Origin: Candidatus Atabeyarchaeum deiterrae
GTDB lineage: Archaea > Asgardarchaeota > Atabeyarchaeia > Atabeyarchaeales > Atabeyarchaeaceae
NCBI GenBank assembly: GCA_037310415.1
Contig: CP147780.1
Coordinates: forward strand, 662,402 to 694,401
Length of the DNA stretch: 32,000 bases
Reading direction: 5' to 3'
Position 1 is the first letter of the stretch. Each line of letters begins with the position of its first letter. A program made the translations under genes and the position numbers. Positions 3,461 through 23,968 of the stretch are shown here, piece after piece. Below the pieces are notes generated by a model. The model worked only from the letters and a program-made list of their open reading frames with translations, was not told the origin of the DNA and did not search any database.

Positions 3461-4369
3461 TCACATAATCAAATTGATGATGGCAAGTGTTGCGTGAATT
3501 GCTTCTTCTGTTCTTACAGTCTGCGTCCCTTGATTGGGGATCATGTTCAAGCTGTAGTCTCCGGTGGTCTCGTCTAGACTTTCTCTAGCCAGTATCTCTT
3601 CCAGTCCCTCTTTTGGAGAGCCGAAAGCAACCAGGATCTTGCTCGAGTTCTTAAGCTCTTCCTGCAGCCTCTTTAGGACATCTTTTATTGGTGAGCCAGA
3701 CCTAGACGTTAGGATGTACAGATCGAATGTTCTTCTTTTCATGAAAGTTCCTAATGTCTCCTGTAACTCAGTTACTCTGAACCCCCAGTACCCGGGAATC
3801 TCAGAGCGACTCACCAAATCTAGCTGGACATCATCTTCGCCTTTTCTTCTGACTCGGAAGCTTTGTCTCTTCCCTTTAGGGACCTTTTCTGAGCTTCTCA
3901 ATGGCCTTCCCAGCCCTGCATCTATGAGGGATCCAGTCCTATCTTGAGCAATAGCAACCCCCTCACGGAATTCGCCATCGCGTAGAGCCGCTACAAGGCT
4001 GTTGGTTGGGTGATGAAGTGTGTTCAGAGGCGGGAGAACCCCGGCGTATTTCAGTACCGGTGACAATGGAAAAAGCCTTTTCCTTAGATATTGTGGCGTC
4101 TCTACATAGCGAAGGATCTGAGAAATCATACCCATTTCGTTTTTCTGTTCTCCATGAATGAGATCTGGATAAATGAATATCTCTTCGACGCGATAGATCG
4201 CGGAAGCGCGCGCGACTTGGCCTATCTTGAAGGTTTTCAATTGGAGTCCTGGAACATCCGCAATTATGGATGCAGGTATCGCTATGCTAACATGCGGTGT
4301 CGCCAAATCAAATCCTCCCATTCTATAGACTTCTCGGGGGTATGCTTTTGAATTTGTTGTGCAAGACAT
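3461..4369 (-). CDS. SPOUT-superfamily putative RNA methyltransferase (DUF171/COG2106, C9orf114/SPOUT1-like)
   Basis: It is 302 aa and lies immediately upstream of rpl3, the conserved archaeal position for COG2106. VSIAIPASI..D and the C-terminal LNMIPNQGTQTVRTEEA resemble the family's knot motif. Confidence 0.7.
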   Translation of the reverse strand: MSCTTNSKAYPREVYRMGGFDLATPHVSIAIPASIIADVPGLQLKTFKIGQVARASAIYRVEEIFIYPDLIHGEQKNEMGMISQILRYVETPQYLRKRLFPLSPVLKYAGVLPPLNTLHHPTNSLVAALRDGEFREGVAIAQDRTGSLIDAGLGRPLRSSEKVPKGKRQSFRVRRKGEDDVQLDLVSRSEIPGYWGFRVTELQETLGTFMKRRTFDLYILTSRSGSPIKDVLKRLQEELKNSSKILVAFGSPKEGLEEILARESLDETTGDYSLNMIPNQGTQTVRTEEAIHATLAIINLIM

Positions 4370-4489: not shown

Positions 4490-5122
4490 TTATTCTATGG
4501 TTGCATGACGAGCCTTCAGATCTTCCTCTTTCTTACCGAGTCGATGCATTAGTTCAGCGATGATACCATCGAGAAAAATCATGGCAGCCACTTCAAATTG
4601 AGTTCCGAGAGGTGCAAGTGGCTCATGCTCTCCCACTATCTGTCTCGAAATGTATGAGTTCTCTTGTCTGGTCATTTTCGTTCTACCAACCACGACTACG
4701 ATTTGGTCTGCTAAGTGCCCAAGAGGAGAATCAGGGTATGAGGTGACAGCTACGACCTTAGCTTGTCTCCTTTCCTTCGCGATTTTGGAAGACATTACAA
4801 CCAGACGCGTTGTGCCCGAGCCCGATATGGCGATTACGACGTCGCCTGAGCTGAGTATTGGAACTATGGTTTCGCCAGTCACATAGACCTGATAGCCCAG
4901 ATGCATTAGGCGAATAGCAAAAGCCTTGCCAACAAGACCCGAGCGACCAGCGCCTACAACTAGTATCTTCTTGTCTCTTGCCCCCATGAGAATCTCGACA
5001 ATAGCTTCAACCTGTTGTGGATTAAGCTGATCAGCAGCTCTCTTGACAGACTCTACTATCTCATCCATTCCCCTCTTTACGAAGCTTGTCCCACTATCTC
5101 CTGTCATGATGCTATCCCCCAT
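4490..5122 (-). CDS. hxlB: 6-phospho-3-hexuloisomerase (SIS domain, RuMP pathway)
   Basis: VVGAGRSGLVGKAFAIRLMHLGYQVYVTGET, AISGSGTT and PLGTQFEVAAMIFLDGIIAELM..RH align closely with archaeal PHI as I recall it, for example the M. jannaschii PHI. Confidence 0.8.
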   Translation of the reverse strand: MGDSIMTGDSGTSFVKRGMDEIVESVKRAADQLNPQQVEAIVEILMGARDKKILVVGAGRSGLVGKAFAIRLMHLGYQVYVTGETIVPILSSGDVVIAISGSGTTRLVVMSSKIAKERRQAKVVAVTSYPDSPLGHLADQIVVVVGRTKMTRQENSYISRQIVGEHEPLAPLGTQFEVAAMIFLDGIIAELMHRLGKKEEDLKARHATIE

Positions 5123-5459
5123 GAGCCACAGGCATTAGAGTGACTTCGTCTCCTTCCGACAGTCTTGTACTGATTCCATCCAGTACTTCTATATCTACAT
5201 CGTTAATAAGTATTAAAATGTCGCTTCTCATCGTTTTTCTGTCCTGCTGGAACAAGTGAGCTGCCATTGTCTCTCCATACATGGTAGCAATCGATCCAAG
5301 CAAATCCCCGACTGTTGCCTCAGCTTGAACCTCAATGATAGTCTCGTTCGGAGCGACTATGTTTCTCATCGTTGACAGAAACCTTATTCTTATCTTCCTC
5401 AGTTGCGCTTCACCCAAAATCCCCAATTCCTTGAAAATCGCTATCACAAAATATCGCAT
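5112..5459 (-). CDS. MoaD/ThiS/SAMP-like ubiquitin-fold protein with a C-terminal Gly-Gly. The real start is probably an internal TTG near 5400.
   Basis: It ends ...EGDEVTLMPVAHGG followed by the stop. IRIRFLSTMRNIV... resembles the MoaD N-terminal strand. Its stop overlaps the hxlB start by 11 nt. Confidence 0.65.
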   Translation of the reverse strand: MRYFVIAIFKELGILGEAQLRKIRIRFLSTMRNIVAPNETIIEVQAEATVGDLLGSIATMYGETMAAHLFQQDRKTMRSDILILINDVDIEVLDGISTRLSEGDEVTLMPVAHGG

Positions 5460-5636
5460 GGGGTTGATTGAAATCTCCGGAATGAAGAGCTGGTTTCTTG
5501 GTGGGCAACAATTCTATTCACTAATTTGATCGGAGTGATTTCCTTGCACTGGATCTGGGATCGTGGAAGACCTGCAAAAAATCGATCGAACCGATACGAC
5601 TTCTGTGAACAAGTTTCGGTCTAACTGATAACCGCC

Positions 5637-5879
5637 CTACTCCATTTCTTCTTCGGAGTCCACATTTCCTTCCTCTTCGTTGTGGCTCTCCCTCGTCTTG
5701 ATCCGTGCTAGGCGCGTTAGGTAACCAGCAACCCCATTTCGGACTTTCTTGGAAGGAGTTAGCAGGACATTCTTCAGTTTTTCCTTGTTGCCAGGAAAGT
5801 CCGTGTTGAAGTAGTCTGGGTACCGCGTGTAGAGATTACGTGCTGTTCGCTTGACAGTGTCTGTTTTGACTTTGCCCAT
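5637..5879 (-). CDS. rps17e: 30S ribosomal protein S17e, with an acidic C-terminal tail
   Basis: MGKVKTDTVKRTARNLYTRYPDYFNTDFPGNKEKL is the typical eS17 N-terminus. Confidence 0.9.
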   Translation of the reverse strand: MGKVKTDTVKRTARNLYTRYPDYFNTDFPGNKEKLKNVLLTPSKKVRNGVAGYLTRLARIKTRESHNEEEGNVDSEEEME

Positions 5880-6088
5880 TGGAGAGCACCTATCGTGTCT
5901 TTAAGATACTTCTAGGTAATCGCTTACGAGAGAACTATCTAATATGCTTCTGCTTTTATAATTCTATCGGTCACATGGTTCATAGGAGTCTCGCCACTAT
6001 ACTCGTCTGATCTTGTTTTGATCGCATTCCAAGCGCGCATAGATTGACCGAAAAGATTTTGAACTAGATATGCTATCTTTGGATTCAT

Positions 6089-6203
6089 GCTCCGGTAGTA
6101 TAGTCCGGTCAAGTATAGCGGCCTCTCGAGCCCAGATAGGGAAAGCCGCGGACCCGGGTTCGAATCTTTCTATCTTGAGGTGAAAATCCCGGCCGGAGCA
6201 CCA
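6089..6203 (+). tRNA. tRNA-Glu(CUC) with two introns and an encoded CCA
   Basis: The acceptor is GCTCCGG/CCGGAGC and the D arm is GTAT/GTAT. The anticodon arm is GCGGC-CTCTCGA-GCCGC, with the anticodon at 6125-6127. This arm only forms after removing 15 nt at 6129-6143, which is compatible with the canonical 37/38 position. The T arm CCGGG-TTCGAAT-CCCGG only forms after removing 22 nt at about 6166-6187. The mature length is 75 nt plus CCA. Confidence 0.85.
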
Positions 6204-6228
6204 ACGCACTAGAAGTTGGCAGGAGTTC

Positions 6229-6465
6229 TCACAGGTTGCCTCCGCCAAACATCCTTAGAAGATCGTTTTTTATTCGGTCGAGTTGCTGATATACCGAACT
6301 GAGTGCGTCGCCAGACCAGCCAAGCACTTGGAGGACGAGTCCGATTATTATCCCTATAACAACGAGAGAGAGTCCTATTAGCATTCCTTCTTCTACAAGC
6401 GGAGAACCCCTCTTGTCCTTCAGTAGTCTCAGAATTAAACTCTTTTCTGCTTTGTTCGGCTTCAT
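6229..6465 (-). CDS. Small membrane protein with a class III (type IV pilin-like) signal peptide
   Basis: It is 78 aa. It reads KDKRG|SPLVEEGMLIGLSLVVIGIIIGLVL: a basic leader, Gly at -1, Glu at +5, then a hydrophobic helix. This resembles short archaeal class III signal-peptide proteins. Confidence 0.45.
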   Translation of the reverse strand: MKPNKAEKSLILRLLKDKRGSPLVEEGMLIGLSLVVIGIIIGLVLQVLGWSGDALSSVYQQLDRIKNDLLRMFGGGNL

Positions 6466-6584
6466 TCTGGCTTCGCCGCAGACTAGTGTCTGCAGTGATA
6501 TTTAAAGCCCAAGTTCACGGCGAGCCAGATCTTGTTTGACACCGTAAAACATTTATCTGCTCCGTCTTTGTTATCTAAAGACCT

Positions 6585-6741
6585 GCGGCCGTGGTCTAGA
6601 CAGTGCCTTCCAAAAACGAATAACCTAGAATGGTCTAGGACAGAGGAAACGAGACAGTTTCCATCCAAAGGCCTCCCAAGTCTCTAACCCAGATTCTCTA
6701 TTCTTGGGGAGGAAACCCGGGTTCAAATCCCGGCGGCCGCA
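6585..6741 (+). tRNA. tRNA-Gly(CCC) with three inferred introns and no encoded CCA
   Basis: The acceptor is GCGGCCG/CGGCCGC with discriminator A. The T arm CCGGG-TTCAAAT-CCCGG is intact. A cloverleaf requires three removals. The first is about 6601-6629 (29 nt, D-loop). The second is about 6647-6671 (25 nt, within the 5' strand of the anticodon stem). The third is about 6685-6711 (27 nt, at the junction of the anticodon stem 3' strand and the variable loop). The result is D arm GTCT/GGAC and anticodon arm GAGGC-CTCCCAA-GTCTC, with the anticodon at 6675-6677. The length bookkeeping is exact: 157 = 76 + 81. Confidence 0.7.
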
Positions 6742-6816
6742 CTCACATTCGGCATTGTTTCCTATCCTTTCAGTGCAAAAGGTTATTAAGCCATCAGCAA
6801 TTAGTGGAAATCAACG

Positions 6817-6869
6817 ATGATGACTCTGACCCCGCTGAAATTCGGATGAATGAAGATCTTGAGTTCTGA
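6817..6869 (+). ncRNA. Candidate C/D-box sRNA (2'-O-methylation guide)
   Basis: The C box is ATGATGA at 6817-6823, followed by an 11-nt guide. The D' box is CTGA at 6835-6838, followed by a 7-8 nt spacer. A degenerate C' box, (A)TGAATGA, is at 6846-6853, followed by a 12-nt guide. The D box is CTGA at 6866-6869. The 53-nt box-to-box length is typical of archaeal sRNAs. It lies in non-coding sequence 76 nt downstream of tRNA-Gly. Confidence 0.5.
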
Positions 6870-6998
6870 GTCTCAGTTCAGTCTTAACGGATAAGTACGT
6901 CTGTTGGAGAATAACTTTTACTTCTCCCTCCCCTATTCTATATTAGTGCTTTCTCATTTCTATAGACTGGGAAACCCGTCGACTGGATACCATCAGTT

Positions 6999-7376
6999 AT
7001 GCTGATTCATGGGTCTGTACATTCACCAGACAGCGGAGGGATCAGTATCATGTTTGTCGGGTCAGAGAGAATCTTGGACAATAGGAACATGACTATACCT
7101 GTTGAAGAGATACTCTCTTCAAGGGGCCGTATCAGAATCATAAAGATGTTGCTCAAGAACGACGAGCTTTGTATTTCTGAGATTGTCAGGTTAACCAGGT
7201 TAAACCATAACTCAGTTGTTCAGCATTTGGATTTACTGAAGCATGCTGGGTTTGTCTACGAGAAGAAATTCGGACGGATACGGATTTATAGCATACGAAA
7301 TGAGAGTCTCATCGTCAAAGCAATGAAGAGTTTCATCTCTCTGTGGGGTTTTTCCAAGATGGAAATTCATAAATAG
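6999..7376 (+). CDS. ArsR/SmtB-family winged-helix transcriptional regulator. The likely start is the ATG at 7089.
   Basis: ILSSRGRIRIIKMLLKNDELCISEIVRLTRLNHNSVVQHLDLLKHAGFVYEKKFGRIRIY matches the ArsR HTH-plus-wing pattern. Confidence 0.75.
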   Translation: MLIHGSVHSPDSGGISIMFVGSERILDNRNMTIPVEEILSSRGRIRIIKMLLKNDELCISEIVRLTRLNHNSVVQHLDLLKHAGFVYEKKFGRIRIYSIRNESLIVKAMKSFISLWGFSKMEIHK

Positions 7377-7424
7377 CCTTCTATGTTCTTTCTCTCACTA
7401 TCTAATCCAGCTAGGAGGAAATCA

Positions 7425-7523
7425 ATGTGCCATCGCATGGCTCGGTTGCAAAGGCGGGCAAAGTTAGGAAGCAAACCCCGAAAGTTGAAGGTGCGGACAG
7501 AATCAAGGCTTCACCGCGCGTGA
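7425..7523 (+). CDS. Possible small basic protein of 32 aa (MCHRMARLQRRAKLGSKPRKLKVRTESRLHRA). It could alternatively be a structured RNA.
   Basis: AGGAGG lies 7 nt upstream of the ATG. The segment is locally GC-rich inside an otherwise AT-rich spacer. It is too short for the ORF track and I recognise no family. Confidence 0.25.
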   Translation: MCHRMARLQRRAKLGSKPRKLKVRTESRLHRA

Positions 7524-7656
7524 GAGGCAGGCTAAACTACGTCAAGCGAATTCTTCACAATAGACCTATAGGCCAAACTACCTAAGCGCGTTGAAGAATA
7601 AAGTAATGATGATGGGAGTTTTAGCTGTTATTTTGTAGCGCATAGGTTGATTAAGA

Positions 7657-8865
7657 TTGGAAGATAATGCTGTTGAAGAAATACTATTTGGGAAATCCGT
7701 CTTCAAGAACGAAGCTACGTTGCTTTCAGAGTACGTTCCTCCGAAACTTCCGAGAAGAGAACGGGAAGTCATGCGTTTGGTGCAGGATTTCAGACCTCTT
7801 CTCATAAGAGATGGCTCATTTGGTGTCAACATTGCGATAGTAGGCGAAGCTGGGGCAGGCAAATCGGCCCTTGCGAAATCTGTCATGGAGAAGATAGTGC
7901 CAGCTGCAAGTAAGAAGAACATCAGGATACTTTTCGAATATTTCAACTGCTATACTTTTCGTACAAAGAGTGCAATTCTAAGGAACATGCTAACTGAGCG
8001 CTTTCACGTGTTGAGTCGTGGGTTCTCAGACGAAGAACTCCTTAGCATGCTTATTAAGAGACTTGTTAGTGAGAACGCGAAACTTGTAATCGTAATAGAC
8101 GAGGCACCGATTCTTGGCGGCGAAGAAATCCTGAGTGTGTTGCATGCATCAGAGGTATATGGGTTTGGTCAGTCCCGTATTTCAACAGTTGTAATAAGTC
8201 GGCCATCCGAATGGAGATTGATGTTGAGCGCGCCTTTGTCAGGGCACATTCACGACCAGATAAATATGACTAGTTACAGCAAAGAGGATCTCGTTGAAAT
8301 TCTGCGTTACAGGGCGGATACAGCTTTTGTCCCTGGTACCGTATCTGAGGAGATCTTGGATATGGTAGCGCAGATAGCGGCAAGTACAAGGAACGCGAGA
8401 CACGGCATCGAAATGCTCTACCAAGCTGGCAAAAGGGCGGATTCAGAAGGTGGAACGGAACTGACAGCTGAAATGATAAGGCAGGCAAAGGAAAATGTCT
8501 ATCCTGAACTAAGGTATGACATGTTCTATACTCTAAAGCCTCATGAGGTTCTGACTGCGCTAAGCATTGCTAGGATGCTAAAAACCAAAGGATCAACATC
8601 CACAACGGTGGACGAATCCTTCGACTACTACCGTGTAGTCTGCGAGGAAGAAGGATTCTCGCCGCAGTTGAAGCCGACTTTCAGAAAGAATGTTAGTCTT
8701 CTGATCAATCTCGGATTCATGGGTCTGATCGTGGGCCCAGTGGAAAGAGGTAAACGAGGCAGACAAGGGAGAATAACACTATATGACATTCCGGCAAGCA
8801 TTCTTGAAGAGAGACTCCGTGATATTCTCGACCGATTCAAGAGAAACCCAAGTGGCACAGACTAG
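7657..8865 (+). CDS. cdc6: Orc1/Cdc6 replication initiator (AAA+ domain plus C-terminal winged helix)
   Basis: FKNEATLLSEYVPPKLPRREREVMRL is the canonical Orc1 N-terminal motif. The Walker A is GEAGAGKS and the Walker B is VIVIDEA. A C-terminal wH-like region is present. The start codon is TTG. Confidence 0.9.
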   Translation: MEDNAVEEILFGKSVFKNEATLLSEYVPPKLPRREREVMRLVQDFRPLLIRDGSFGVNIAIVGEAGAGKSALAKSVMEKIVPAASKKNIRILFEYFNCYTFRTKSAILRNMLTERFHVLSRGFSDEELLSMLIKRLVSENAKLVIVIDEAPILGGEEILSVLHASEVYGFGQSRISTVVISRPSEWRLMLSAPLSGHIHDQINMTSYSKEDLVEILRYRADTAFVPGTVSEEILDMVAQIAASTRNARHGIEMLYQAGKRADSEGGTELTAEMIRQAKENVYPELRYDMFYTLKPHEVLTALSIARMLKTKGSTSTTVDESFDYYRVVCEEEGFSPQLKPTFRKNVSLLINLGFMGLIVGPVERGKRGRQGRITLYDIPASILEERLRDILDRFKRNPSGTD

Positions 8866-8867
8866 AA

Positions 8868-10232
8868 TCATGGAATAGGTTTCAACTGTTTTTGCCTCGA
8901 GTTCCTTAGAGTCTGATGATATGAGCCAGTCGCCTTTGCCACGAATATATTGTGTTTGGTGCGAATCATACGCACCTGTCTTCTTGAATGGGTGTCCGTG
9001 TCGCCTGTCAGAACATGTAGAGATCGGTCCCTACCGACGCCAAGCATCTCCCCCATCATTCGACCAGATTCTAGGATCTCGATTTCGCAGATCTCGCCTC
9101 TTCTGAAAGGTTTTGGATAGCTTTCCATCGGTCTTATTCCAAAGTCGGTGGGGGTCAGAATGAGAGGGTGAACATCATAGAATTTGCCAATAGCCTCTAT
9201 TTCACTCTGGAACTGTTTCATAGAGCAAGGCTTGAGACCTTTTACCTTCTTGCCATGTTTATGGATCAAGTAATTCTGAATGCCAAGCAAAGGCCACTCT
9301 GACCTATTCGCAATCTTCTTAACAAATCGCACTATCTTGGGAATCTCATCGTCGTTGAGACCAGGAACCCACAGCGGGGCTATAAGTAGTGAAACGTCTG
9401 ACTCACATATCTTCTCCACGATATTGAGAATATGTCCAAGAGAATAACCTACTTCACCTGAAAGCTGTAATGCTTTCCCTGAATCCAATGCATTTACTGA
9501 GAGATTTATCCGAGAAAGTCCGGCCCGCTCCAGTTTATCGACTAGACTATCCGTCAATGGAACTCCATTAGTCTGGAGTGATATTGTCTCAACGCCAGAA
9601 ATCATTGAAAGCTTCTCAACTAACTCAGGCAGATAAGGATAGAGTGTCGGTTCTCCTTGTCCATCAATATGCAACTCGATGGATTGCGATCCCTTGAATT
9701 CGCATAATTTCCTTATCTCATCGACCATGTATCCAGGTTCGACAATGAAATCAGTCAAGCGGGTCTTCGAGTGTAATCCACTGTCGACGGAGCAGAAAGG
9801 ACAGTCGAGGACACACCCGGTTATTGGTCTAACCTGAATTAGGTTTGTTCCTCTATCGATTATCCCAAAATCAATCCGTCCTATCAAGGGGATCCCAGAA
9901 GAGTCTGTCACATAGATGAGTCTGTTTCCAGTGATCCGATTCCTGAGCGTGCCGGGCAAATGTGCTGAGATGAAGTTGCTCGCAATGTCAACTAGTTTCT
10001 GATCATCTACCCTATCACCGGAGGATGTATCAAGAATGAGCATCAATTCTCCGTCTTTAACTATAATATCAGCTCTTGATGTGTCACTTGTTAAACCCCT
10101 TCTCATAAGGTTCCTCAGCCGAGCTAACGGTAACTCGCCAGCAATGATTCTGTGAAGATAGATAGTGATTATTCCACCATTGATTTCTGCTTCAATCGGA
10201 AAGAGTTGAGACAAGTTGATTTCTCTTCTCAT
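8868..10232 (-). CDS. Radical SAM protein (archaeal COG2100-like)
   Basis: It carries CVLDCPFCSV, the CX3CX2C radical SAM cluster motif, with TIM-barrel-like repeats after it. It also has long N-terminal and C-terminal extra domains. Confidence 0.8.
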   Translation of the reverse strand: MRREINLSQLFPIEAEINGGIITIYLHRIIAGELPLARLRNLMRRGLTSDTSRADIIVKDGELMLILDTSSGDRVDDQKLVDIASNFISAHLPGTLRNRITGNRLIYVTDSSGIPLIGRIDFGIIDRGTNLIQVRPITGCVLDCPFCSVDSGLHSKTRLTDFIVEPGYMVDEIRKLCEFKGSQSIELHIDGQGEPTLYPYLPELVEKLSMISGVETISLQTNGVPLTDSLVDKLERAGLSRINLSVNALDSGKALQLSGEVGYSLGHILNIVEKICESDVSLLIAPLWVPGLNDDEIPKIVRFVKKIANRSEWPLLGIQNYLIHKHGKKVKGLKPCSMKQFQSEIEAIGKFYDVHPLILTPTDFGIRPMESYPKPFRRGEICEIEILESGRMMGEMLGVGRDRSLHVLTGDTDTHSRRQVRMIRTKHNIFVAKATGSYHQTLRNSRQKQLKPIP

Positions 10233-10407
10233 TGAACTTCATCTTTCTCTGTCCAACAGATTTATAACAGGTCTTGAGATCCGATTCCATTGAAGAACCA
10301 TACGGACTTGTCACATGAACACTAGTTCTACTGCGTGTTACTAACTTTTTGCTGTACGGGCGCAGCTGATAAACATGGTTATGTGCTGACTACCATTTAA
10401 CCCTACA

Positions 10408-11385
10408 GTGAAGACCAAAATCAATGAGATTAGTTGTGCAGGCGGTCCGAAATTGAATAAATGCTCAAAGTGCGGTAGGAACGCTGTCACATTCAGGCCC
10501 TACTCTGGTGAGTACTTATGTAAAGTATGCTTCACTGGATCAGTTGAAGATAAGGTTAGGAGAGCGATTACAGTCAACAGAATGCTGAAGGAAGATGACA
10601 GAATAGCAGTAGGGCTCTCAGGTGGCAAGGACAGTGTGGTCTTACTACACATCATGAAGCAGATCGAAGAGAAATTTCCTAATTCACGACTCATGGCTCT
10701 TACGGTTGACGAGGGAATATCAGGTTATCGTGAAGAGAGTATAGCTGTAGCAAAGAGAAATGCATTGTTGCACGATATACCCCATTCTATATTCTCTTTT
10801 AAGGATCTTTTCGGCTACACAATCGATGAGATTATGCAAAATGGACGAGTGAAAAACTCGGGCGCTAGCGCATGTTCTTTTTGTGGGTCACTCAGGAGAA
10901 GGGCATTGAACCAGATGGCCAGAGAGCTCGGAGCCACAAAGCTAGCCGTTGGGCATAATTTGGATGATGAGTCTCAAAGCATACTCCTGAACGTGCTACG
11001 GCCAGACATTCATCGCTTGGCTAAGTTGGTTCCGGCTACAAGTTCCGAATGTAAGAACTTCGTACCTCGAATTAAACCACTTCGGGCGATTCCTGAGCGG
11101 GAAACTGTTCTATATGCATATTACAAAGGAATAGAGTTCCACTCACAAGAATGCCCATACTCGTTTAATGTGCTCAGAGGCGACATTGAATCGATTTTGA
11201 ACACTCTTGAAGCCAGGAACCCAGGAGTAAAATACGGTATACTCAGATTCTTGGAGGACTTAGCCCCCCTTCTCGAAAACTATAGACGAGATATCGATTT
11301 TACTCAATGTGAGTATTGTGGTGAGCCTTCTTCGGACACTCTCTGCAATGTGTGCAAACTCTTATCACACTTAGCTCAGAAATGA
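10408..11385 (+). CDS. PP-loop ATPase of the TtuA/NcsA(Ctu1)/TtcA family (tRNA 2-thiolation)
   Basis: The PP-loop is SGGKDS. The N-terminus has CSKCG..CKVC and the C-terminus has CEYCG..CNVC, forming zinc-ribbon pairs. GHNLDDE is also present. Confidence 0.8.
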   Translation: MKTKINEISCAGGPKLNKCSKCGRNAVTFRPYSGEYLCKVCFTGSVEDKVRRAITVNRMLKEDDRIAVGLSGGKDSVVLLHIMKQIEEKFPNSRLMALTVDEGISGYREESIAVAKRNALLHDIPHSIFSFKDLFGYTIDEIMQNGRVKNSGASACSFCGSLRRRALNQMARELGATKLAVGHNLDDESQSILLNVLRPDIHRLAKLVPATSSECKNFVPRIKPLRAIPERETVLYAYYKGIEFHSQECPYSFNVLRGDIESILNTLEARNPGVKYGILRFLEDLAPLLENYRRDIDFTQCEYCGEPSSDTLCNVCKLLSHLAQK

Positions 11386-11401
11386 GTAGTGAACATGGAA
11401 A

Positions 11402-11751
11402 GGGTTATGAACCCCGACTCTCGACATCCTTTACGCTCACCAGTACCCTTCTCTAGGGAATCCACCCCGTGAATCCGAAAGCGCACCCGGTCAAACTTAC
11501 GACTGCTGCCTCCCGGCTCTCGTCGGATTTGTCTACAACGGTCTTCTCCATCTCCCCTACAGGAGATGTTCGACCACCAGATGCCCTCCGGGGCGAGGCT
11601 TCATGTCCCTCGGAAAAGGCTGTATGAACGCTTGGAATGCCTCAAGCCGGCATTCGGCCCGCCGTATAGGGCGTTTGCGGTACAGGGGAGTTCTAGCCTA
11701 TGGCTGGGGATCAGTCTAGGTCCCTAGCCCCCCGCCTAGGCTCATAACCCC
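11402..11751 (-). ncRNA. Signal recognition particle RNA (archaeal 7S RNA); ends are approximate
   Basis: On the minus strand the 5' end GGGTTATGA pairs with the 3' end TCATAACCC. GCCTAGGCGGGGGGCTAGGG and CTCCCCTGTACCGCAAACGCC resemble the archaeal Alu-domain 5' region. CGAC-GAGA-GCC-GGGA-GGC-AGCA-GTCG forms the helix 8 motif, with a GNRA loop and an AGCA symmetric loop. Confidence 0.85.
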
Positions 11752-11766
11752 AATGTGGATACCGAA

Positions 11767-11781
11767 AAATTAAATATAAAG
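11767..11781 (-). promoter_or_regulatory. TATA box/BRE-like AT box for the SRP RNA
   Basis: CTTTATATTTAATTT on the minus strand is centred about 25 nt upstream of the inferred SRP RNA 5' end. Confidence 0.5.
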
Positions 11782-11853
11782 ATTTCCTGATGTGGAGATT
11801 AGGTGGTTTTTGGGCACCAACTGTGTTTGATGTCCTGATCCATGCGTATGCGT

Positions 11854-11995
11854 GCCGGGGTGTCCTAGAGAGACGAATTCGACCAGTCTCAGGGAACCTG
11901 GTAGGGAGCAGACAAAACCACTCTTGGTAATGGCTCATGCCTGCTAAGTCTGTGCCCGAAAGGGCGCGTGGGTTCAAATCCCACCCCCGGCGCCA
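11854..11995 (+). tRNA. tRNA-Ser(GCU), class II, with two introns and an encoded CCA
   Basis: The acceptor is GCCGGGG/CCCCGGC with discriminator G, followed by CCA. The T arm is GTGGG-TTCAAAT-CCCAC and the long variable arm is TGCCCGAAAGGGCGC. D arm TCCT/GGGA and D-loop AGCCTGGTA form only after removing 11869-11896 (28 nt). The anticodon arm CAGAC-CTGCTAA-GTCTG, with the anticodon at 11943-11945, forms only after removing 11914-11940 (27 nt, between positions 31 and 32). The bookkeeping is 139 = 84 + 55. Confidence 0.8.
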
Positions 11996-12138
11996 AACTA
12001 TTAATGAGATTCTGGGGGATGAGTAGTACCTGTTGGGTGGGCTGAAAGCGGCGAGTAGTCAGATAGAGGTTCGGTGTCTGGCAAATTCCTCTTCCAAATG
12101 CCATCTAGCTGGGAATCTGATCTCACATTCGAAACACC

Positions 12139-12579
12139 GTGTCGGGGGCAATCATTGTGGGGTACGAATTCCTTGAACACACTGCTGACGTTATGGTTGA
12201 AGCGCACGGGGGATCCCTTGAGGAAGCATTCTGCTTTGCTGCCAAAGCCATGTTCGATACGATGGTTGACTTGTCGAAAGTTGTGCCGAAATCAAGTGTG
12301 AATGTTGAGGTTTCGGCAAGTGACGTCGAAGGTTTGTTGTACTTGTGGCTCGAGGAACTGCTTTTCAGGTTTGATGTCGAGAGGATGGTTTTCTCAGAAT
12401 TCAGATTCCAATTCATCGAGAAAGAAGATGCCCTGATCGGTAGGGGAATTGCAGAGGGTGAGCCTTACGACCCTAAGAAGCATTTGGGGAAAACCGAGGT
12501 AAAAGCAGTAACATACGAAGAAATGCTGATAGTTAAGAGCGATAGGGGTTTCAAGGTTAGGTTCATTCTCGATATATGA
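12139..12579 (+). CDS. Archease (activator of the RtcB tRNA-splicing ligase and chaperone of tRNA m5C methyltransferase)
   Basis: GYEFLEHTADVMVEAHGGSLEEAF..A is the hallmark archease N-terminus. It is 146 aa, and KAVTYEEM lies near the C-terminus. Confidence 0.85.
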   Translation: MSGAIIVGYEFLEHTADVMVEAHGGSLEEAFCFAAKAMFDTMVDLSKVVPKSSVNVEVSASDVEGLLYLWLEELLFRFDVERMVFSEFRFQFIEKEDALIGRGIAEGEPYDPKKHLGKTEVKAVTYEEMLIVKSDRGFKVRFILDI

Positions 12580-12791
12580 TAGATCGATCGGTTCCTTTAT
12601 CAATTGTCGATTAATCGCCAACTGTTAGGGATTTGCCGAAGTATGATCCCTTCAAGACATAACACTTTTATTTGATCAGCAATAGGAGTAGTAGTTCAAA
12701 TCCCGGCATCATTGATGACTGTTCTTAGAATGATATGCATTGTCCATGACAACAGGTCTTTATGAGTTAGGTCCATTGAGGACGATCAAAG

Positions 12792-13682
12792 ATGACTTCG
12801 TTTAACTTCGACCCCGTCAGCATTCTAATTGGTTTACTAGTTGTTGGTGGTTTCGGTGTTTTTTCAATGAAAGTAAAAGCGGTCAACTTCTCTGGTTTAA
12901 TAGCAGGTCTAGTAGTAGGGCTTTCAGTCTGGGTCTTCGGGGGCTGGTATTGGTTTGTTTTGATCCTGACATTTCACTTGGTCACCGCTCAGTTCACACA
13001 TTTCAAGTATGAATTCAAGAGGAAACTCGGTGTCGCGGAAGGGAAGCATGGAGCAAGGGCGTGGGGAAATGTTTTTGCTAACGGAGGAATCCCAGCAGTC
13101 TTCGCCATTTTCGAGAGAATATACCCGATTTACTTGACTGGAAGCGCAGACATATTCTTCGCCGCTTTCATAGGAGCGATATCTACCACAACCGCAGACA
13201 CACTTGCCACCGAAATCGGGTTGCTTTATCCAAGAGAGCCCAGACTCATCACCAATCTCAAGACAAAAGTTGTACCCGGAACATCTGGAGGCATATCACC
13301 TCTTGGTGAAGCAGCTATAATCGGAGGCGGCCTTTTGATAGGGTCCGTGGCTTGGCTTCTCGCTATTACGACGAGACTGATACCAAGTGAAGGCATTCTC
13401 GGTTTTGGTCCAAACCTGCTTATCATATGTGTCGTGTCGGCCTTCTTTGGAAGCACCATTGACAGTTTTCTTGGCGCAACTCTGCAGGGATCGTACAAGT
13501 GTAAGGCATGCCACAAGATAACAGAGCATAGAGTTCACTGCGACGAGCCAGCAGAGCTTATGAGAGGTAGCAGATTACTCGGAAACAACTGGGTTAACTT
13601 CATTTCATCCCTTTCAGGTGCCGTTGTAGCAATCCTCATGTTTTACTTCAGCATACAGTTCCCTCTAGTTCGAACGATTTAG
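12792..13682 (+). CDS. DUF92/TMEM19-family integral membrane protein (COG1836) with a C-terminal Cys/His cluster
   Basis: It has multiple TM helices. PGTSGGISPLGEAAIIGG is a typical DUF92 motif. YKCKACHKITEHRVHC is inserted before the last helix. Confidence 0.7.
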   Translation: MTSFNFDPVSILIGLLVVGGFGVFSMKVKAVNFSGLIAGLVVGLSVWVFGGWYWFVLILTFHLVTAQFTHFKYEFKRKLGVAEGKHGARAWGNVFANGGIPAVFAIFERIYPIYLTGSADIFFAAFIGAISTTTADTLATEIGLLYPREPRLITNLKTKVVPGTSGGISPLGEAAIIGGGLLIGSVAWLLAITTRLIPSEGILGFGPNLLIICVVSAFFGSTIDSFLGATLQGSYKCKACHKITEHRVHCDEPAELMRGSRLLGNNWVNFISSLSGAVVAILMFYFSIQFPLVRTI

Positions 13683-13700
13683 GAATCGTTGGCGAGGGTC

Positions 13701-13952
13701 TTACTTCTTCGAAGCATAGTAGCTGTCAATAAACTCTCCATAGACATCTACCTGCTCGGTGAGTTTGCCGACAGCAAGCTTGCTGTTTATTCCACAGTTA
13801 CCACATCTGACTGAAGCTTCATGGTGACTCTTGTCTATCATTATCTTGACTGATTTGTTTCCGCATGAGGGACACGTAAAAAGCACCGGCACTCTTCTTG
13901 GAATTCTTTTGATAACCTTCCTGCGTCTTCTGCCCATCTCAAACACAACCAT
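13701..13952 (-). CDS. Transcription elongation factor Elf1 homologue (zinc ribbon). The likely start is the ATG at 13937.
   Basis: MGRRRRKVIKR...FTCPSCGN...VRCGNCG...VDVYGEFID matches the Elf1 architecture: a basic tail plus a C4 zinc ribbon. Confidence 0.75.
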   Translation of the reverse strand: MVVFEMGRRRRKVIKRIPRRVPVLFTCPSCGNKSVKIMIDKSHHEASVRCGNCGINSKLAVGKLTEQVDVYGEFIDSYYASKK

Positions 13953-14022
13953 ATCTTCGTACGCCGTTCTAAAAGTAACTCATGGTCGGCTTAGCTCAGT
14001 TTTCGTCATAACAATGTCCCTT

Positions 14023-15792
14023 CTAGATAATAAACTCGTTTCTGATGTGTTCAAGCAGTGACCTTGCTTCAATTCTGGGGTCGGGTTTAACTATTCTGAT
14101 AACTCTGAGTTCACTCCTGTTCAACTTCTGATTCAGAGAGCACCTCCCTACCAGGATCACGTCTGTGCCGAGAACATTTGAGAGCATTGATGCATTTTCT
14201 TTTGTGTTGCCTTCTATGCCAGAAAGCAGCTCATCAGCTCTCATGTCCAGCAGTTCTTCGCCAATCTTTCCTGACAACGTGCATTTTACTATAGCGGTTC
14301 CATCATCAAGGGTTAGGCTGTATAGAACTCTTGGCATGGGGGTATCGATGCTGCCATGTTCTATGCAGAGCCATTTTTCTTCTTTCTTGTCAACTTTTCT
14401 GAAGCATTTCGGACATGCCATATAGACTAGAGGTCTATCTTGGACTTTCGTGATCAACCCTCTGATTTCAGCGACCTCCCCATCCTTCAGTTCGACTATC
14501 TTCTTCCTATGGACTCTGTTATCTCTGTCTTCTACCCGTGCGAGATCATATCTTAATCCACGATCTGCCAACGCGATCCTTTCTATGCCGTTCTTGACAG
14601 TGACCAAATTCGAATCTCTGATATGTACTTCTACCTCAGCGTTTATTCCACGTCTTATGTTTCCTTCTCTGATTGCGATGCTGTCACCTTTTCTCAGCTC
14701 TCTAAGATTCTCAGCATCTTCGTCCCATGCCACAACTCTAATCGATGAAGTGTTGTCAGCCAGAATGAATGAGAGTATCTTACCTTTCACACCATTACTG
14801 CGGGTGAACTCTCTAAGAAGAGGCTCATCAGCTATCAAACCCTCTAGGGCAACACCTCGTGTTCTCCGCTCACTTTCAATAATTCCCTTGGCTTTCTCGA
14901 TTCCAGTCGTACCGACCACAGCAGTTACTGAAGGGACCATTTTGACAGCTGATGATGCGTTGATATGGATTTCGATTCCACCATTTCTATTTAAGCGTGC
15001 TTGTCCCGAGCGAATCTCCATAATGTCCCCTATTCTAGCATTTTCCACAAGAGATGTTTTGTCATCCCAGAAGACCACCCGCGCACTGGCTCCAGTCTCA
15101 TCTCCTATGATCAGGCTTGACAGCCGGACTTCCCTTCCTTCCTTGGTTCGCACGGATCTCGTACCGAAAACTCTCTGAACAAGCCCTTTAACATTAACTT
15201 CTCTCATTTCAGGTCTCAGTTCGTTGACTTTCATACTCCTCGCCAAGTCTGGAGGAAAGTCACTTTCCCTAGTATCATGAGGGTTGATTTCTATTCGTCC
15301 TCTTCTACCAACATGCAGTTCAATCTTTTCCCCTAAGTCCTCTTTTACATAGCCATCATGGATTCTGACGATACTGCCCTCGTTGACATTGTTAGTTTGA
15401 ACGAAACTGGTCGCTTCGCCCCATAATACGGTCTTCGCTTCTCCACTCTTGTCGGCGATGACTAGGTCTGTTACAAATCCCTTGTTGCCGTTTCTGTCAG
15501 TGTACTCCCTTACAGGATTGACTCTCATGACCCTGCCAGTGATTGTGACATTACTCATTCCCGTAACAAGATCGCCAATCGTGAGACTGAGATCCTCATC
15601 ATCAAGATCTGGATAGATCTCTACGCCGAGCTCCTTTGCAACTAGATCGGCGGCTCCTTCATCACTTATCATCCAACTGAGTGTGCTTTTCTTCTTGTCA
15701 ATCAGCTCGAAGACTTGTTTTCTGGATAACCCTTTTTCCTCAACTATTCTACTCACTATTTCGTCAAGCGCCACTCTTGGTAGTCTATTCAT
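14023..15792 (-). CDS. Replication protein A, a large ssDNA-binding protein with several OB folds and a zinc finger
   Basis: The OB-fold pattern is repeated (ITGRVMRV...R.Y.....G....L.I.D.TG). CPKCFRKVDKKEEKWLCIEHG forms the zinc ribbon inside the last OB fold. The protein is 589 aa. Confidence 0.85.
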   Translation of the reverse strand: MNRLPRVALDEIVSRIVEEKGLSRKQVFELIDKKKSTLSWMISDEGAADLVAKELGVEIYPDLDDEDLSLTIGDLVTGMSNVTITGRVMRVNPVREYTDRNGNKGFVTDLVIADKSGEAKTVLWGEATSFVQTNNVNEGSIVRIHDGYVKEDLGEKIELHVGRRGRIEINPHDTRESDFPPDLARSMKVNELRPEMREVNVKGLVQRVFGTRSVRTKEGREVRLSSLIIGDETGASARVVFWDDKTSLVENARIGDIMEIRSGQARLNRNGGIEIHINASSAVKMVPSVTAVVGTTGIEKAKGIIESERRTRGVALEGLIADEPLLREFTRSNGVKGKILSFILADNTSSIRVVAWDEDAENLRELRKGDSIAIREGNIRRGINAEVEVHIRDSNLVTVKNGIERIALADRGLRYDLARVEDRDNRVHRKKIVELKDGEVAEIRGLITKVQDRPLVYMACPKCFRKVDKKEEKWLCIEHGSIDTPMPRVLYSLTLDDGTAIVKCTLSGKIGEELLDMRADELLSGIEGNTKENASMLSNVLGTDVILVGRCSLNQKLNRSELRVIRIVKPDPRIEARSLLEHIRNEFII

Positions 15793-16239
15793 TCTTCGTT
15801 AGCCTCGTGAACTCACTAATATTGATATTACAGATGCAGAGTCTTAAAGCTCTCTAATTGCTTCTGAAACTGGGCGGAGTCCGAAGCAAAAAAGGAAATA
15901 GCCCCCTGCTTCAGTGAACGCATTCACTCATTCTATTGCTTTCCTTCCCAGAACTTCGGTATATATTCCTAGATCTGTTCTAAGAAATGGATTGACTGTC
16001 TTGTCGTGTTCCTGCTTCATATCCCTTATAAACTAAGCAATCTGGCTACGGGATTCCGTCGCCTTGGCCATGAGGTCTTCAATCAATTGCGGCCAGCGAC
16101 GTAGGCTTTGACTTCGAGGAATGCTTCTATTACTAAGCTTTTCTAACTATCCTTCAAGACCATATGACGGAGCACCCAATGTATGTTCTCATCGGGTGAT
16201 AGAGTGCACGCGGAGAGGTGAAAGGGTTTCTCAGAAGAA

Positions 16240-16353
16240 TTAGACAACTGATTTTTCCTCTTCTCCGAATATCTGATACGCGAGAATGAACACGACAGCC
16301 ACACCGATCAAAACCCACAGGATCGTGAGGAGCGTGTCAAAGGCTGCTGCCAC
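16240..16353 (-). CDS. Possible 37-aa single-TM micro-protein with a GTG start
   Basis: (V)AAAFDTLLTILWVLIGVAVVFILAYQIFGEEEKSVV has a hydrophobic helix and an acidic tail. GGAG lies about 11 nt upstream. It is below the ORF-track cutoff. Confidence 0.25.
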   Translation of the reverse strand: MAAAFDTLLTILWVLIGVAVVFILAYQIFGEEEKSVV

Positions 16354-16439
16354 TATTCATCATCTCCTGTTTGGCTCTCGACCTACGTGAAGTAAGAATG
16401 GGTATTTATTATTTCTCTCTTTTGTAGGGCTCTCCTGTT

Positions 16440-16769
16440 CTAGGGGTCCTGTCTCGCGACTCTTCGCAATCCCCTCATGAAGGTCAGATATCGGCTGTCA
16501 TCCAAGGGTTCCAACTCATATGTGTGCAACGCCTCAGCTATCGTCTTGGCTAAGAGATGGTAACAGCAAAGGAACTTTCTTCTTATAATCACGTTGAGGT
16601 AGAAGTCATCACAAGTGCAGTAAAAGTCATCTATTACAAAGTAATTCATTTTCTTACCTTTTACAGTCCAAGCTTCGCGCCCGCTTGGACCAAAAACATG
16701 CTTGATGACACTTCCTTCTATGGCAGCCCTGATTCCTTTCCAGAATCGTTCTCCGTATCTCGCGGACAT
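16440..16769 (-). CDS. Small stand-alone SWIM zinc-finger protein
   Basis: YCTCDDFYLNVIIRRKFLCCYHLLA fits the SWIM CxC-x(n)-CxH signature. It is 109 aa. Confidence 0.6.
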   Translation of the reverse strand: MSARYGERFWKGIRAAIEGSVIKHVFGPSGREAWTVKGKKMNYFVIDDFYCTCDDFYLNVIIRRKFLCCYHLLAKTIAEALHTYELEPLDDSRYLTFMRGLRRVARQDP

Positions 16770-16891
16770 ACCTCTTAGCTCACTGCCTGAAACCTGTCCA
16801 CTCTTCTTAATCTTGGCTAGACTTTGGTCGTCTCTAAGCAGACTGAATCCCCTCGCTTGCTAAAGATCGATGTCTCAAATATGATAGTATG

Positions 16892-17056
16892 TGGGCGAGG
16901 CCGGATTTGAACCGGCGACCTCAGGTTGCTATCGATCCATTGCGAGCAATCTCCTGCTCCCACTCTGCGGCAACATCCCATATGATGCATGTTGCTTAGG
17001 CAGGAATCATGGCCAGCCTAGGGATTCTCTTGAACTCCTATCTAGACTACCCGCCC
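16892..17056 (-). tRNA. tRNA-Pro(UGG) with three inferred introns and no encoded CCA
   Basis: On the minus strand the acceptor is GGGCGGG/CTCGCCC with discriminator A, and the T arm is GCCGG-TTCAAAT-CCGGC. The perfect anticodon stem CCTGC/GCAGG encloses 42 nt. The only 7-nt loop with U33 and a purine at position 37 is CT+TGGGA, which needs a 35-nt intron between positions 33 and 34; the anticodon is at 16960-16962. A 24-nt D-loop intron follows GTCTAG. A 31-nt intron sits between the anticodon stem and AGGTC of the variable loop. The bookkeeping is 165 = 75 + 90. Confidence 0.7.
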
Positions 17057-17174
17057 ATTCCTCTTTTGCCTTGGACAAGCACCTTCATTCTCAATCATTA
17101 ACCCTGTTTCTTCTTAATTCTCTTTTTATGCAGACATGGCACCTGAGAGACTGGCAGAGGCTGAATATAGGGTC

Positions 17175-17187
17175 TTTAAATATATAT
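17175..17187 (+). promoter_or_regulatory. TATA-like box upstream of tRNA-Thr
   Basis: TTTAAATATATAT is centred about 39 nt upstream of tRNA position 1. Confidence 0.4.
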
Positions 17188-17219
17188 GTAACTCTTTTAT
17201 CCCAAGAGAAGGAAAGATT

Positions 17220-17312
17220 GCCGCCGTAGCTCAGTCGGTCAGAGCGCCAGCCTTGTAATGCACCAGACATGACAGTTGGTGGTCGCGAGTTCGACTCTCG
17301 CCGGCGGCTCCA
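17220..17312 (+). tRNA. tRNA-Thr(UGU) with one canonical 37/38 intron and an encoded CCA
   Basis: The acceptor is GCCGCCG/CGGCGGC with discriminator T, followed by CCA. The D arm is GCTC-AGTCGGTCA-GAGC. The anticodon stem is CCAGC/GTTGG and the loop is CTTGTA|A. A 16-nt intron occupies 17258-17273. The T arm is GCGAG-TTCGACT-CTCGC. Confidence 0.9.
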
Positions 17313-17318
17313 AAATTA

Positions 17319-18542
17319 CTACTCCTGCTTGGTTCTCTTAACGGCTCGGTAAAGGGCTTCGAGCCCAGGTAGCTTCTGTCCAGCTAGCATTGCCATAGTA
17401 GCTCCCCCGCCGGTGCTAACGTAACCCATCGACTTATCGAGATTTTCTTCCTTGGCTAAGACAGCCAAATGTCCTCCTCCGATAACGGAGAAACCCTTTG
17501 ACTGTGCTATCGCCTCTAGGATCTCTTGCGTTCCCTTAGAAAAGTTTCTATTTTCAAAGACTCCGGCCGGTCCATTTGCAAGAATTGTCTTTGCCTTCGC
17601 TATTATGTCCACGTATTCCTTAATGGTGTTTTCTCCTATGTCCATCACAGTAGCATCCTTGGGCATTCTGTCAACTCGAACTTCAACTCGTTTTTGCTCG
17701 ATGGCTACGGCAACATCCTTGGGGAGCATTATTATATCCCTGTACTTCTCTAATAGGTCCTTAGCTTGTTTCTTGAGCGATTCGAAATCCTTCAGATTTC
17801 CCCTGCTGCTCTCGCCAAGGCTTACACCCGACGCTTCGAGAAAAACGATGGCCATAAGCCCTGCCAGGAGAACCTTGTCAACCTTTTTCCTCTCCAGTAT
17901 GCTGGATAGAATCTTGATCTTGTCTGACACCTTTGCTCCTCCCAGTACCACAACACTTGGTCTATCAGGTTCATAGAGCACTCTGTTGAGCGCCTTTAGT
18001 TCCCTTTCCATCGATCTACCCGCAGCAGAAGGTAGAACCTCAGGGAATCCGACCATTGAGGCTTGGGCACGGTGTGCCGCTGGATAAGCGTCATTCACAA
18101 ACAAATCAAAGAGAGGTGAGAGTCTCTTGACGAGATGAGTCTTGGCGAATAGCTCTGGTGTCCCTTCCATGATTTCTTCGGAGAGAAATCTGGCGTTGTC
18201 CAGCAGAAGTACATCGCCGTTCTTGAGTTTTTGAATGGCCTCTAGGGCTGTTGGTCCTATAATATCCTCGACGAATTTCAATCGATTTCCCAAATACTTC
18301 TTTAATGCTTGTGCATGAGATTTCATTGATGTAAAATCGGCTTCTCCGGGTCTACCTTGATGTGACAGAATGGCAACTCTGGCCTTTTCTAGATCTTTCA
18401 ACGTGTCGAGGATGGCTACTATCCTTGAATCGTCTAATATCTGATCCGTTCCGGGTTTCATTGGCGAATTTATGTCAACCCTTACGAGGACTTTTTTTGA
18501 ATCGACTTCCACGTCATCCAAAGTCAAGAATTTCAAACTCAT
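17319..18542 (-). CDS. pgk: Phosphoglycerate kinase
   Basis: It is 407 aa. VLVRVDINSP, ILSHQGRPG, GGAKVSDKI and VSTGGGA are canonical PGK motifs. Confidence 0.93.
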   Translation of the reverse strand: MSLKFLTLDDVEVDSKKVLVRVDINSPMKPGTDQILDDSRIVAILDTLKDLEKARVAILSHQGRPGEADFTSMKSHAQALKKYLGNRLKFVEDIIGPTALEAIQKLKNGDVLLLDNARFLSEEIMEGTPELFAKTHLVKRLSPLFDLFVNDAYPAAHRAQASMVGFPEVLPSAAGRSMERELKALNRVLYEPDRPSVVVLGGAKVSDKIKILSSILERKKVDKVLLAGLMAIVFLEASGVSLGESSRGNLKDFESLKKQAKDLLEKYRDIIMLPKDVAVAIEQKRVEVRVDRMPKDATVMDIGENTIKEYVDIIAKAKTILANGPAGVFENRNFSKGTQEILEAIAQSKGFSVIGGGHLAVLAKEENLDKSMGYVSTGGGATMAMLAGQKLPGLEALYRAVKRTKQE

Positions 18543-21396: not shown

Positions 21397-21536
21397 CTTG
21401 TGTCTCCCTCCTCCTCATCGATGAGTTCATTATTCCCTCAAGTAGATTGATATCGGTTTTCTTATTTAAGACTGACATATGACAAGAGATTGCCCGGTCC
21501 TGTGAGTTCCGCTTGGTTGACAGATTAATGGATTGG

Positions 21537-23534: not shown

Positions 23535-23537
23535 ATT

Positions 23538-23849: not shown

Positions 23850-23968
23850 ACGAAACGTTGTGAAACTTCGATTCCTGCAATCGATCACGAAAAACTTAAT
23901 AGTCTAAATAACAAAATGAGTTATCTGTTGTTATTTTCCCAAAACAAGAGGGCGAAGGGTGAAGAAGA

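Follow-up and report, generated by a model that had tools for sequence, protein, structure and literature searches.

How can five tRNAs be made from genes that hold far too much sequence between their recognizable ends? This question is raised by a stretch of 32,000 nucleotides of the Asgard archaeon Candidatus Atabeyarchaeum deiterrae (Atabeyarchaeia-2), namely, positions 662,402 to 694,401 of contig CP147780.1 (assembly GCA_037310415.1), hereinafter the window, within which coordinates are given unless stated otherwise. When its intergenic stretches are read directly, five loci show clear acceptor stems and T-arms with too much sequence in between. We consider it very probable that these loci are functional tRNA genes, each interrupted by one to three protein-spliced introns of the bulge-helix-bulge (BHB) type. 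The structures of the genes, the geometry of the BHB motifs, the restoration of the cloverleaves, and the conservation of these features across relatives are demonstrated (Table 1). Because the coordinates of the window differ by a constant from those in the genome table published for Atabeyarchaeia-2 in 2024 (Valentin-Alvarado et al. 2024, Nat Commun 15:6384, PMC11291895), the five multi-intron genes are already in the literature, and the present analysis confirms them independently. What is added here is junction-level evidence of BHB or relaxed BHB motifs for all 11 inserts, conserved among relatives, a corrected intron count for two of the genes, and a lead concerning the signal recognition particle (SRP) RNA.

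Interrupted tRNA genes and the motifs at their junctions

ARAGORN called no tRNAs in the raw 32-kb window, and Rfam at gathering thresholds reported two RNAs only, the archaeal SRP RNA and a single tRNA. The latter is tRNA-Thr (17220-17309), which scores 60.3 bits and has 18 nt inserted into its anticodon loop; ARAGORN also recovers it when run with -i. When positions 5500-18000 were scanned with Rfam at permissive settings, the sole tRNA-like addition was an isolated T-arm (11967-11984). Given that multi-intron genes are expected to escape both programs, the failure to detect the other four genes is not evidence against them. Once the introns are removed in silico, ARAGORN calls all five products as expected (Glu-ctc, Gly-ccc, Ser-gct, Pro-tgg, and Thr-tgt). 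The covariance-model support envisaged in the earlier note is confined to tRNA-Thr as far as Rfam and raw DNA are concerned, whereas the claim that a cloverleaf closes upon intron removal is borne out by the recognition of every spliced product. Together with the 18 orthologous genes from related genomes described below, 23 of 23 spliced products (5 + 18) are recognized as the expected tRNA; when left unspliced, all genes but those for tRNA-Thr are missed or miscalled.

The mature tRNAs, without CCA, comprise 75 (Glu), 75 (Gly), 84 (Ser), 75 (Pro), and 74 (Thr) nt; these lengths had been given correctly in the earlier note except for Gly, to which it assigned 76 nt. The 3' CCA is encoded in three of the five genes, those for Glu (6201-6203), Ser (11993-11995), and Thr (17310-17312), and is missing from the Gly and Pro genes. 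A scan of the whole window for combinations of a T-arm and an acceptor stem revealed no additional credible tRNA, and every tRNA found in the window is interrupted, as had been claimed. Two further candidates were discarded. One (21535-21714, + strand) lies within an NFACT coding region, is AT-rich and lacks both a D-arm and an anticodon arm, and was taken as a chance match; the other is a T-arm-like string near 12690-12712, in which the T-arm is not conserved in three relatives. The conserved part upstream of this string is the TATA-like CATAACACTTTTATT, probably, the promoter and 5' untranslated region of the DUF92 gene.

We searched the junctions with a scanner in which a central 4-bp helix (H) pairs exon positions x-5..x-2 with intron positions n-5..n-2 and is flanked by 3-nt bulges that are cut after the second nucleotide; the outer helices, h (exon with exon) and h' (intron with intron), were scored as well. 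In the strict mode, positions 77-98 of the Glu gene and 59-85 of the Ser gene were recovered, with 104-129 of the Gly gene as a near-miss, and the relaxed mode recovered every junction that is needed for the cloverleaf to close. Altogether, scanning and splicing produce 11 introns of 15-35 nt, two in Glu, three in Gly, two in Ser, three in Pro, and one in Thr. Two of these occupy the 37/38 site, three the D-loop, three the anticodon arm on its 5' side, two the 45/46 site in the variable loop, and one the 59/60 site in the T-loop. Both the counts and the spread of positions reproduce what had been proposed in the earlier note.

At 11 of 11 junctions, there is a BHB core whose two 3-nt bulges are in register, in line with the motifs, BHB or relaxed HBh', that had been anticipated there. 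All four pairs of H form at nine junctions and three of four at the remaining two, with a C.A mismatch in Gly intron 2 and a U.U mismatch in the Thr intron. The complete hBHBh' arrangement (h>=3) is found at five junctions, those of Glu introns 1 and 2, Ser intron 2, Pro intron 2, and the Thr intron; the other six, that is, all D-loop and variable-loop introns plus Gly intron 2, have the relaxed HBh' form (h of 0 or 1). In Ser intron 2, helix h (UGGUAGG/CCUGCUA) is an alternative pairing of the 3' strand of the D-arm with the anticodon loop. When the letters of each intron were permuted with the exons kept fixed, H and h' were matched at per-intron P values from <0.0001 to 0.14 (for example, 0.002 for Glu intron 2 and 0.0001 for Gly intron 2), and the product of these values is about 3e-31.

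Alternative boundaries were rejected in two genes. A strict BHB motif at positions 15-54 of the Pro gene would remove the 3' half of the D-arm and leave a 59-nt product, and the conserved 24-nt intron at 18-41 was preferred. For Ser intron 2, a boundary at gene positions 61-87 creates a perfect CAGAC/GUCUG stem, yet on inspection by hand the central 4-bp helix fails to form.

The introns were traced through six related loci from five other assemblies, with 18 orthologous tRNA genes: two loci of Atabeyarchaeia-1 (L001 and L004), one of GCA_019058575.1 (L005), and three metagenome contigs from JGI (L006, L008, and L009). In all 18 genes, the intron positions and the BHB register are unchanged, with introns that differ in length and sequence. 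Identity between the window and its relatives is 1348/1384 (97.4%) in the exons and 747/1127 (66%) in the introns, and much of the latter falls within the part that pairs with the exon. The Thr exons, for instance, are 100% identical to those of Atabeyarchaeia-1, and the Thr intron differs in both length and sequence. Pairing is maintained through changed bases. The position of Glu intron 1 is conserved in six genomes, where the 3' strand of H reads AGGG, GGAG, GGGG, or AGAG, each pairing with CUCU. Helix h' is kept in Gly intron 3 (CCCAG/TTGGG versus CCTAGGA/TTCTAGG, with a compensatory change from C-G to U-A), in Gly intron 2 (GGAAAC/GTTTCC versus GGAAGAT/ATCTTCC), and in Ser intron 1 (GAGAC/GTCTC versus GAGT/ACTC, with an A-U to U-A swap relative to L001). 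Helix H of Gly intron 2 comprises 4 bp in four of six orthologues. A comparison of the introns with one another for signs of transposition yielded short matches only (best z about 4 over 66 pairs) and was not convincing.

Table 1. Genes and predicted introns in the window; H, h, and h' give the number of base pairs in the central, exon-exon, and intron-intron helices
Feature	Coordinates	Strand	Length (nt)	Structure or site	Motif or remarks
tRNA-Glu(CUC) gene	6089-6203	+	115	3 exons	published tRNA #18 of Atabeyarchaeota_2
Glu intron 1	6129-6143	+	15	canonical 37/38	hBHBh' (H=4, h=5, h'=1)
Glu intron 2	6165-6186	+	22	T-loop 59/60	strict hBHBh' (H=4, h=5, h'=4)
tRNA-Gly(CCC) gene	6585-6741	+	157	4 exons	published tRNA #19
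Gly intron 1	6602-6630	+	29	D-loop 17/17a	relaxed HBh' (H=4 CUAG/CUAG, h=1, h'=2)
Gly intron 2	6644-6668	+	25	anticodon stem 27/28	relaxed HBh' (H=3, h=0, h'=6)
Gly intron 3	6687-6714	+	28	variable loop 45/46	HBh' (H=4, h=1, h'=5)
tRNA-Ser(GCU) gene	11854-11995	+	142	3 exons	published tRNA #20
Ser intron 1	11869-11896	+	28	D-loop 15/16	HBh' (H=4, h=1, h'=5)
Ser intron 2	11912-11938	+	27	anticodon stem 29/30	strict hBHBh' (H=4, h=7, h'=2)
tRNA-Pro(UGG) gene	17056-16892	-	165	4 exons	published tRNA #31
Pro intron 1	17039-17016	-	24	D-loop 17/17a	HBh' (H=4 CUAG/CUAG, h=1, h'=3)
Pro intron 2	16997-16963	-	35	anticodon loop 33/34	hBHBh' (H=4, h=3; h' 7 bp past A.C mismatch)
Pro intron 3	16950-16920	-	31	variable loop 45/46	HBh' (H=4, h=1, h'=5)
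tRNA-Thr(UGU) gene	17220-17312	+	93	2 exons	published tRNA #21
Thr intron	17258-17273	+	16	canonical 37/38	hBHBh', one U.U mismatch in H (H=3, h=7, h'=1)
Archaeal SRP RNA gene	11405-11747	-			Rfam RF01857, 131 bits
Archease gene (RtcB tRNA ligase cofactor)	12139-12579	+			Pfam PF01951, E=2e-44
tRNA/RNA modification gene cluster	3461-4369, 5112-5459, 8868-10232, 10408-11385
Cdc6/Orc1 gene	7657-8865

The published census and rival explanations

The earlier note had placed such an intron density mainly in Thermoproteales and a few TACK lineages; it has, however, already been described for this very Asgard genome. In Atabeyarchaeia-1, Atabeyarchaeia-2, and Freyarchaeia, introns interrupt 92-95% of the tRNA genes, with several per gene in over half of them and often at non-canonical positions, and the total for the three genomes is 228 introns (PMC11291895). 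Supplementary Data 4 of that work lists, for Atabeyarchaeota_2, Glu-CTC at 668490-668604, Gly-CCC at 668986-669142, Ser-GCT at 674255-674396, Thr-TGT at 679621-679713, and Pro-TGG at 679457-679293. Window coordinates plus 662,401 equal the published coordinates for every gene start and end and for eight of the 11 introns, and wherever tRNAscan-SE boundaries are given, that is, for these eight, they coincide with ours. Gly intron 3 is identical to the published tRNAscan intron 669088-669115, and Pro introns 2 and 3 agree with the published coordinates; Pro intron 1 is absent from the two introns listed for that gene. Likewise, the three boundaries that we obtained in the Gly gene of Atabeyarchaeia-1 (18-55, 69-93, and 112-139) are the published tRNAscan-SE ones, and intron 18-55 is the homolog of Gly intron 1 of the window.

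The two intron counts differ for Gly and Pro, genes to which published scores of 42.6 and 65.1 bits, respectively, are attached. The published table has one (tRNAscan) or two (R2DT) introns for Gly-CCC and two for Pro-UGG, hence nine for the five genes; for Atabeyarchaeia-1, it lists three introns in each of the orthologues, in the case of Pro by R2DT (PMC11291895). We conclude that the five genes hold 11 introns rather than nine and that the published table undercounts Gly and Pro by one each, because removal of the published introns alone leaves products of about 100 nt without a tRNA fold, the extra inserts are conserved, and the Atabeyarchaeia-1 orthologues have three.

Several observations weigh against a reading with 11 spliced introns. 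The splicing itself is something that we infer from sequence. The outer exon helix is missing in six motifs (h of 0 or 1) and H is imperfect in two, and the R2DT counts published for this genome are two for Gly and two for Pro, against three each here. Folding of whole precursors by minimum free energy (MFE) and partition function gives a high-probability H in only three of the 11 introns, Pro intron 1 (base-pair probability 0.93-0.98), Pro intron 2, and Ser intron 2 (0.64). High-probability h' hairpins form in about half, namely, in Gly intron 2 (1.00), Gly intron 3, Ser intron 1 (0.93-0.94), and Pro intron 1, and the remaining introns fold in shifted registers. This is, however, a weak test: a helix of only 4 bp, set between bulges, should not be expected to prevail in the MFE fold. 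Finally, a window-wide scan for BHB motifs (H=4, h>=4, h'>=3) produced about as many matches as shuffled sequence (130-178); being so unspecific, it was not used to seek introns in mRNAs. Taken by itself, without the cloverleaf and conservation, the BHB motif is not diagnostic.

If only nine introns were real, as published, the extra inserts in Gly and Pro would have to be retained expansions or wrongly delimited segments, a reading that agrees with the totals of two in Supplementary Data 4 and with the relaxed nature of the D-loop motifs (h=1). The tRNA-Pro would then measure 99 nt and the tRNA-Gly at least 100 nt, however, and no cloverleaf forms. Moreover, the extra inserts have an H of the CUAG/CUAG or GGAC/GUCC type and correct bulges, are conserved in three to six genomes, and correspond in position to introns that are published for both Atabeyarchaeia-1 orthologues (PMC11291895), and in Pro intron 1, H is among the helices that precursor folding does predict. 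We regard this explanation as very unlikely.

That the loci might be decaying tRNA pseudogenes or relics disrupted by insertions, with the functional tRNAs encoded elsewhere, is suggested by the fact that four of the five genes go undetected by ARAGORN and Rfam in raw sequence, but it is hard to reconcile with an identity of 97% in exons versus 66% in inserts across six assemblies, with acceptor and anticodon stems that are intact once spliced, and with the precise BHB geometry that the inserts retain. Nor does the published table for this complete genome list a second gene for any of the five anticodons, so that the uninterrupted copies considered in the earlier note do not appear there; each gene being the sole one listed for its anticodon, the five must be functional. 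The metagenomic origin of the genome, which was assembled from a metagenome and curated manually (PMC11291895), raises the further possibility that the interruptions are artefacts of assembly or curation. The same architecture, with diverged introns, nevertheless recurs in independent NCBI and JGI assemblies (all six related loci), and the overall topology of the genome was validated with long reads, according to PMC11291895. Decay of the genes has, in our estimate, next to no chance of being the correct explanation, and the chance of an artefact is just as negligible. We accordingly retain the reading of five intact genes with spliced introns.

Predicted splicing machinery and comparison with known systems

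In the mechanism that we envisage, each gene would be transcribed as a precursor holding one to three introns of 15-35 nt, and each junction would form a BHB motif in which the 5' exon pairs over 4 bp with the 3' part of the intron and this helix is flanked by the two 3-nt bulges that bear the cuts, usually with an intron hairpin h' and sometimes with an exon-exon helix h. Some precursors, such as that of tRNA-Ser at intron 2, would have to adopt folds other than the cloverleaf to present the motif. The archaeal splicing endonuclease EndA would cut both bulges of each motif, and RtcB, aided by archease, would join the exons. We infer the cleavage and ligation, the type of the enzyme, and any order of intron removal.

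The six relaxed HBh' motifs imply that an endonuclease of broad specificity is needed. Among EndA types, (alpha-beta)2 and epsilon2 alone cut non-canonical or relaxed motifs, and the EndA of Asgard archaea is an (alpha-beta)2 enzyme with the L1 loop (PMC5829648). In the supplement of PMC11291895, where K01170 occurs at least three times, at least two K01170 endonuclease genes (genes 206 and 659) as well as RtcB (K14415) and archease are among the annotations of Atabeyarchaeia-1. An alpha2beta2 endonuclease would fit both the literature on Asgard EndA and these K01170 annotations. In PMC11291895, genes for splicing enzymes appear only in the supplementary KEGG table, and the words bulge, endonuclease, RtcB, archease, SRP, and 'signal recognition' are absent from the main text. 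Pfam and protein searches revealed no gene for EndA or another splicing endonuclease among the genes of the 32-kb window. The archease gene of the window is located 144 nt downstream of the two-intron tRNA-Ser gene, near the SRP RNA gene, and occupies the same position in L005, L006, and L008.

The multi-intron tRNA genes of Thermoproteales, reportedly described by Sugahara et al. in 2008 and Fujishima et al. in 2010, share with the genes analyzed here short introns with BHB or relaxed motifs, many non-canonical positions, and up to three introns per gene. The dependence on a broad-specificity (alpha-beta)2 EndA would also be shared. Thermoproteus tenax, as quoted in PMC4731332, has 48 introns in 46 tRNAs. 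In contrast to Thermoproteales, the present lineage is Asgard rather than TACK, the G+C content here is moderate (about 46%), and the intron load is higher, with the 228 introns of the three Atabeyarchaeia and Freyarchaeia genomes. The canonical archaeal tRNA intron resides at 37/38 and has the strict hBHBh' motif, as Marck and Grosjean reportedly set out in 2003. Glu intron 1 and the Thr intron resemble this type in the helix between anticodon and intron, the two 3-nt bulges, and the use of the anticodon stem as h, whereas nine of the 11 introns are inserted elsewhere and six lack the outer exon helix. The very high density of tRNA introns in Asgard archaea bears on the spread of introns and on the evolution of the archaeal and eukaryotic tRNA splicing machinery, a significance that was already argued in 2024 for this genome.

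The SRP RNA gene and other features of the window

In the Rfam alignment of the SRP RNA, 32 nt stand against a single consensus nucleotide in the apical loop of a 5'-domain hairpin. The 31-nt insert at 11691-11721 (- strand) conforms to a strict hBHBh' motif, with h=8, H=4 (CUAG/CUAG), h'=4, and the bulges GG^A and AA^C, and its removal leaves the hairpin GCGGGGGG-CUAGGGC-UCCCCUGU, which has the Rfam consensus length. Six further sequences, from four syntenic loci and two metagenome contigs, contain a 30-nt version with an h' of 7 bp and a different loop sequence. Across the six distinct sequences of the insert alignment, 99.1% of the cells are paired, and sliding the partners lowers this share to 38-52%. 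There is little covariation (a single double-sided change in six closely related sequences), and the shuffle control was not significant. A search of metagenomes for intron-less alleles of the SRP RNA produced only two matches, both of which carry the 30-nt insert, as confirmed in their sequences.

Judging by these features of the sequence, the SRP RNA insert is probably a BHB intron, which offers the lead that the tRNA splicing machinery probably processes the SRP RNA as well. For the permuted SRP RNA of Thermoproteus, an SRP RNA ancestor 'with simple BHB introns' has been postulated (Plagens et al. 2015); if the insert is spliced, the Atabeyarchaeia gene would represent that postulated form. 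No published case of an SRP RNA gene with a BHB intron turned up in full-text searches. On balance, we lean towards the view that the BHB introns of Atabeyarchaeia are not confined to tRNAs, as the conserved SRP RNA insert suggests. The published census, in addition, is short by two in these five genes alone.

Between about 23000 and 24000, the GC skew changes sign (its cumulative minimum is reached near 23 kb), the genes switch orientation, and the G+C content is at its lowest in the window (41.6%); a search for origin-like repeats in 23450-24050 produced nothing convincing. The RPA-like protein encoded at 14023-15792 is 52% identical to its match in CP147779.1 (SRVP18_Atabeyarchaeia-1), and the Cdc6 protein (7657-8865) matches, at 100% identity, an NCBI protein from a 2.76-Mb contig of Candidatus Atabeyarchaeum deiterrae. 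Near the tRNA genes, there are tRNA/RNA modification genes, encoding a SPOUT methyltransferase, a Urm1/ThiS-like protein, a radical-SAM enzyme, and a TtuA/Ncs6-like 2-thiolation enzyme (Table 1), and these adjoin the genes for ribosomal proteins L2, L4, L3, and S17e and the Cdc6/Orc1 gene. About 75 nt downstream of tRNA-Gly, there is a C/D-box sRNA (6817-6869, + strand), for which the Rfam matches do not reach the threshold (sR55, 23 bits). The four boxes of this sRNA (C, D', C', and D) are conserved throughout the six related genomes, as are the two guides (CUCUGACCCC[G/A] and AUCUUGAGUU), and the D'-C' spacer varies.

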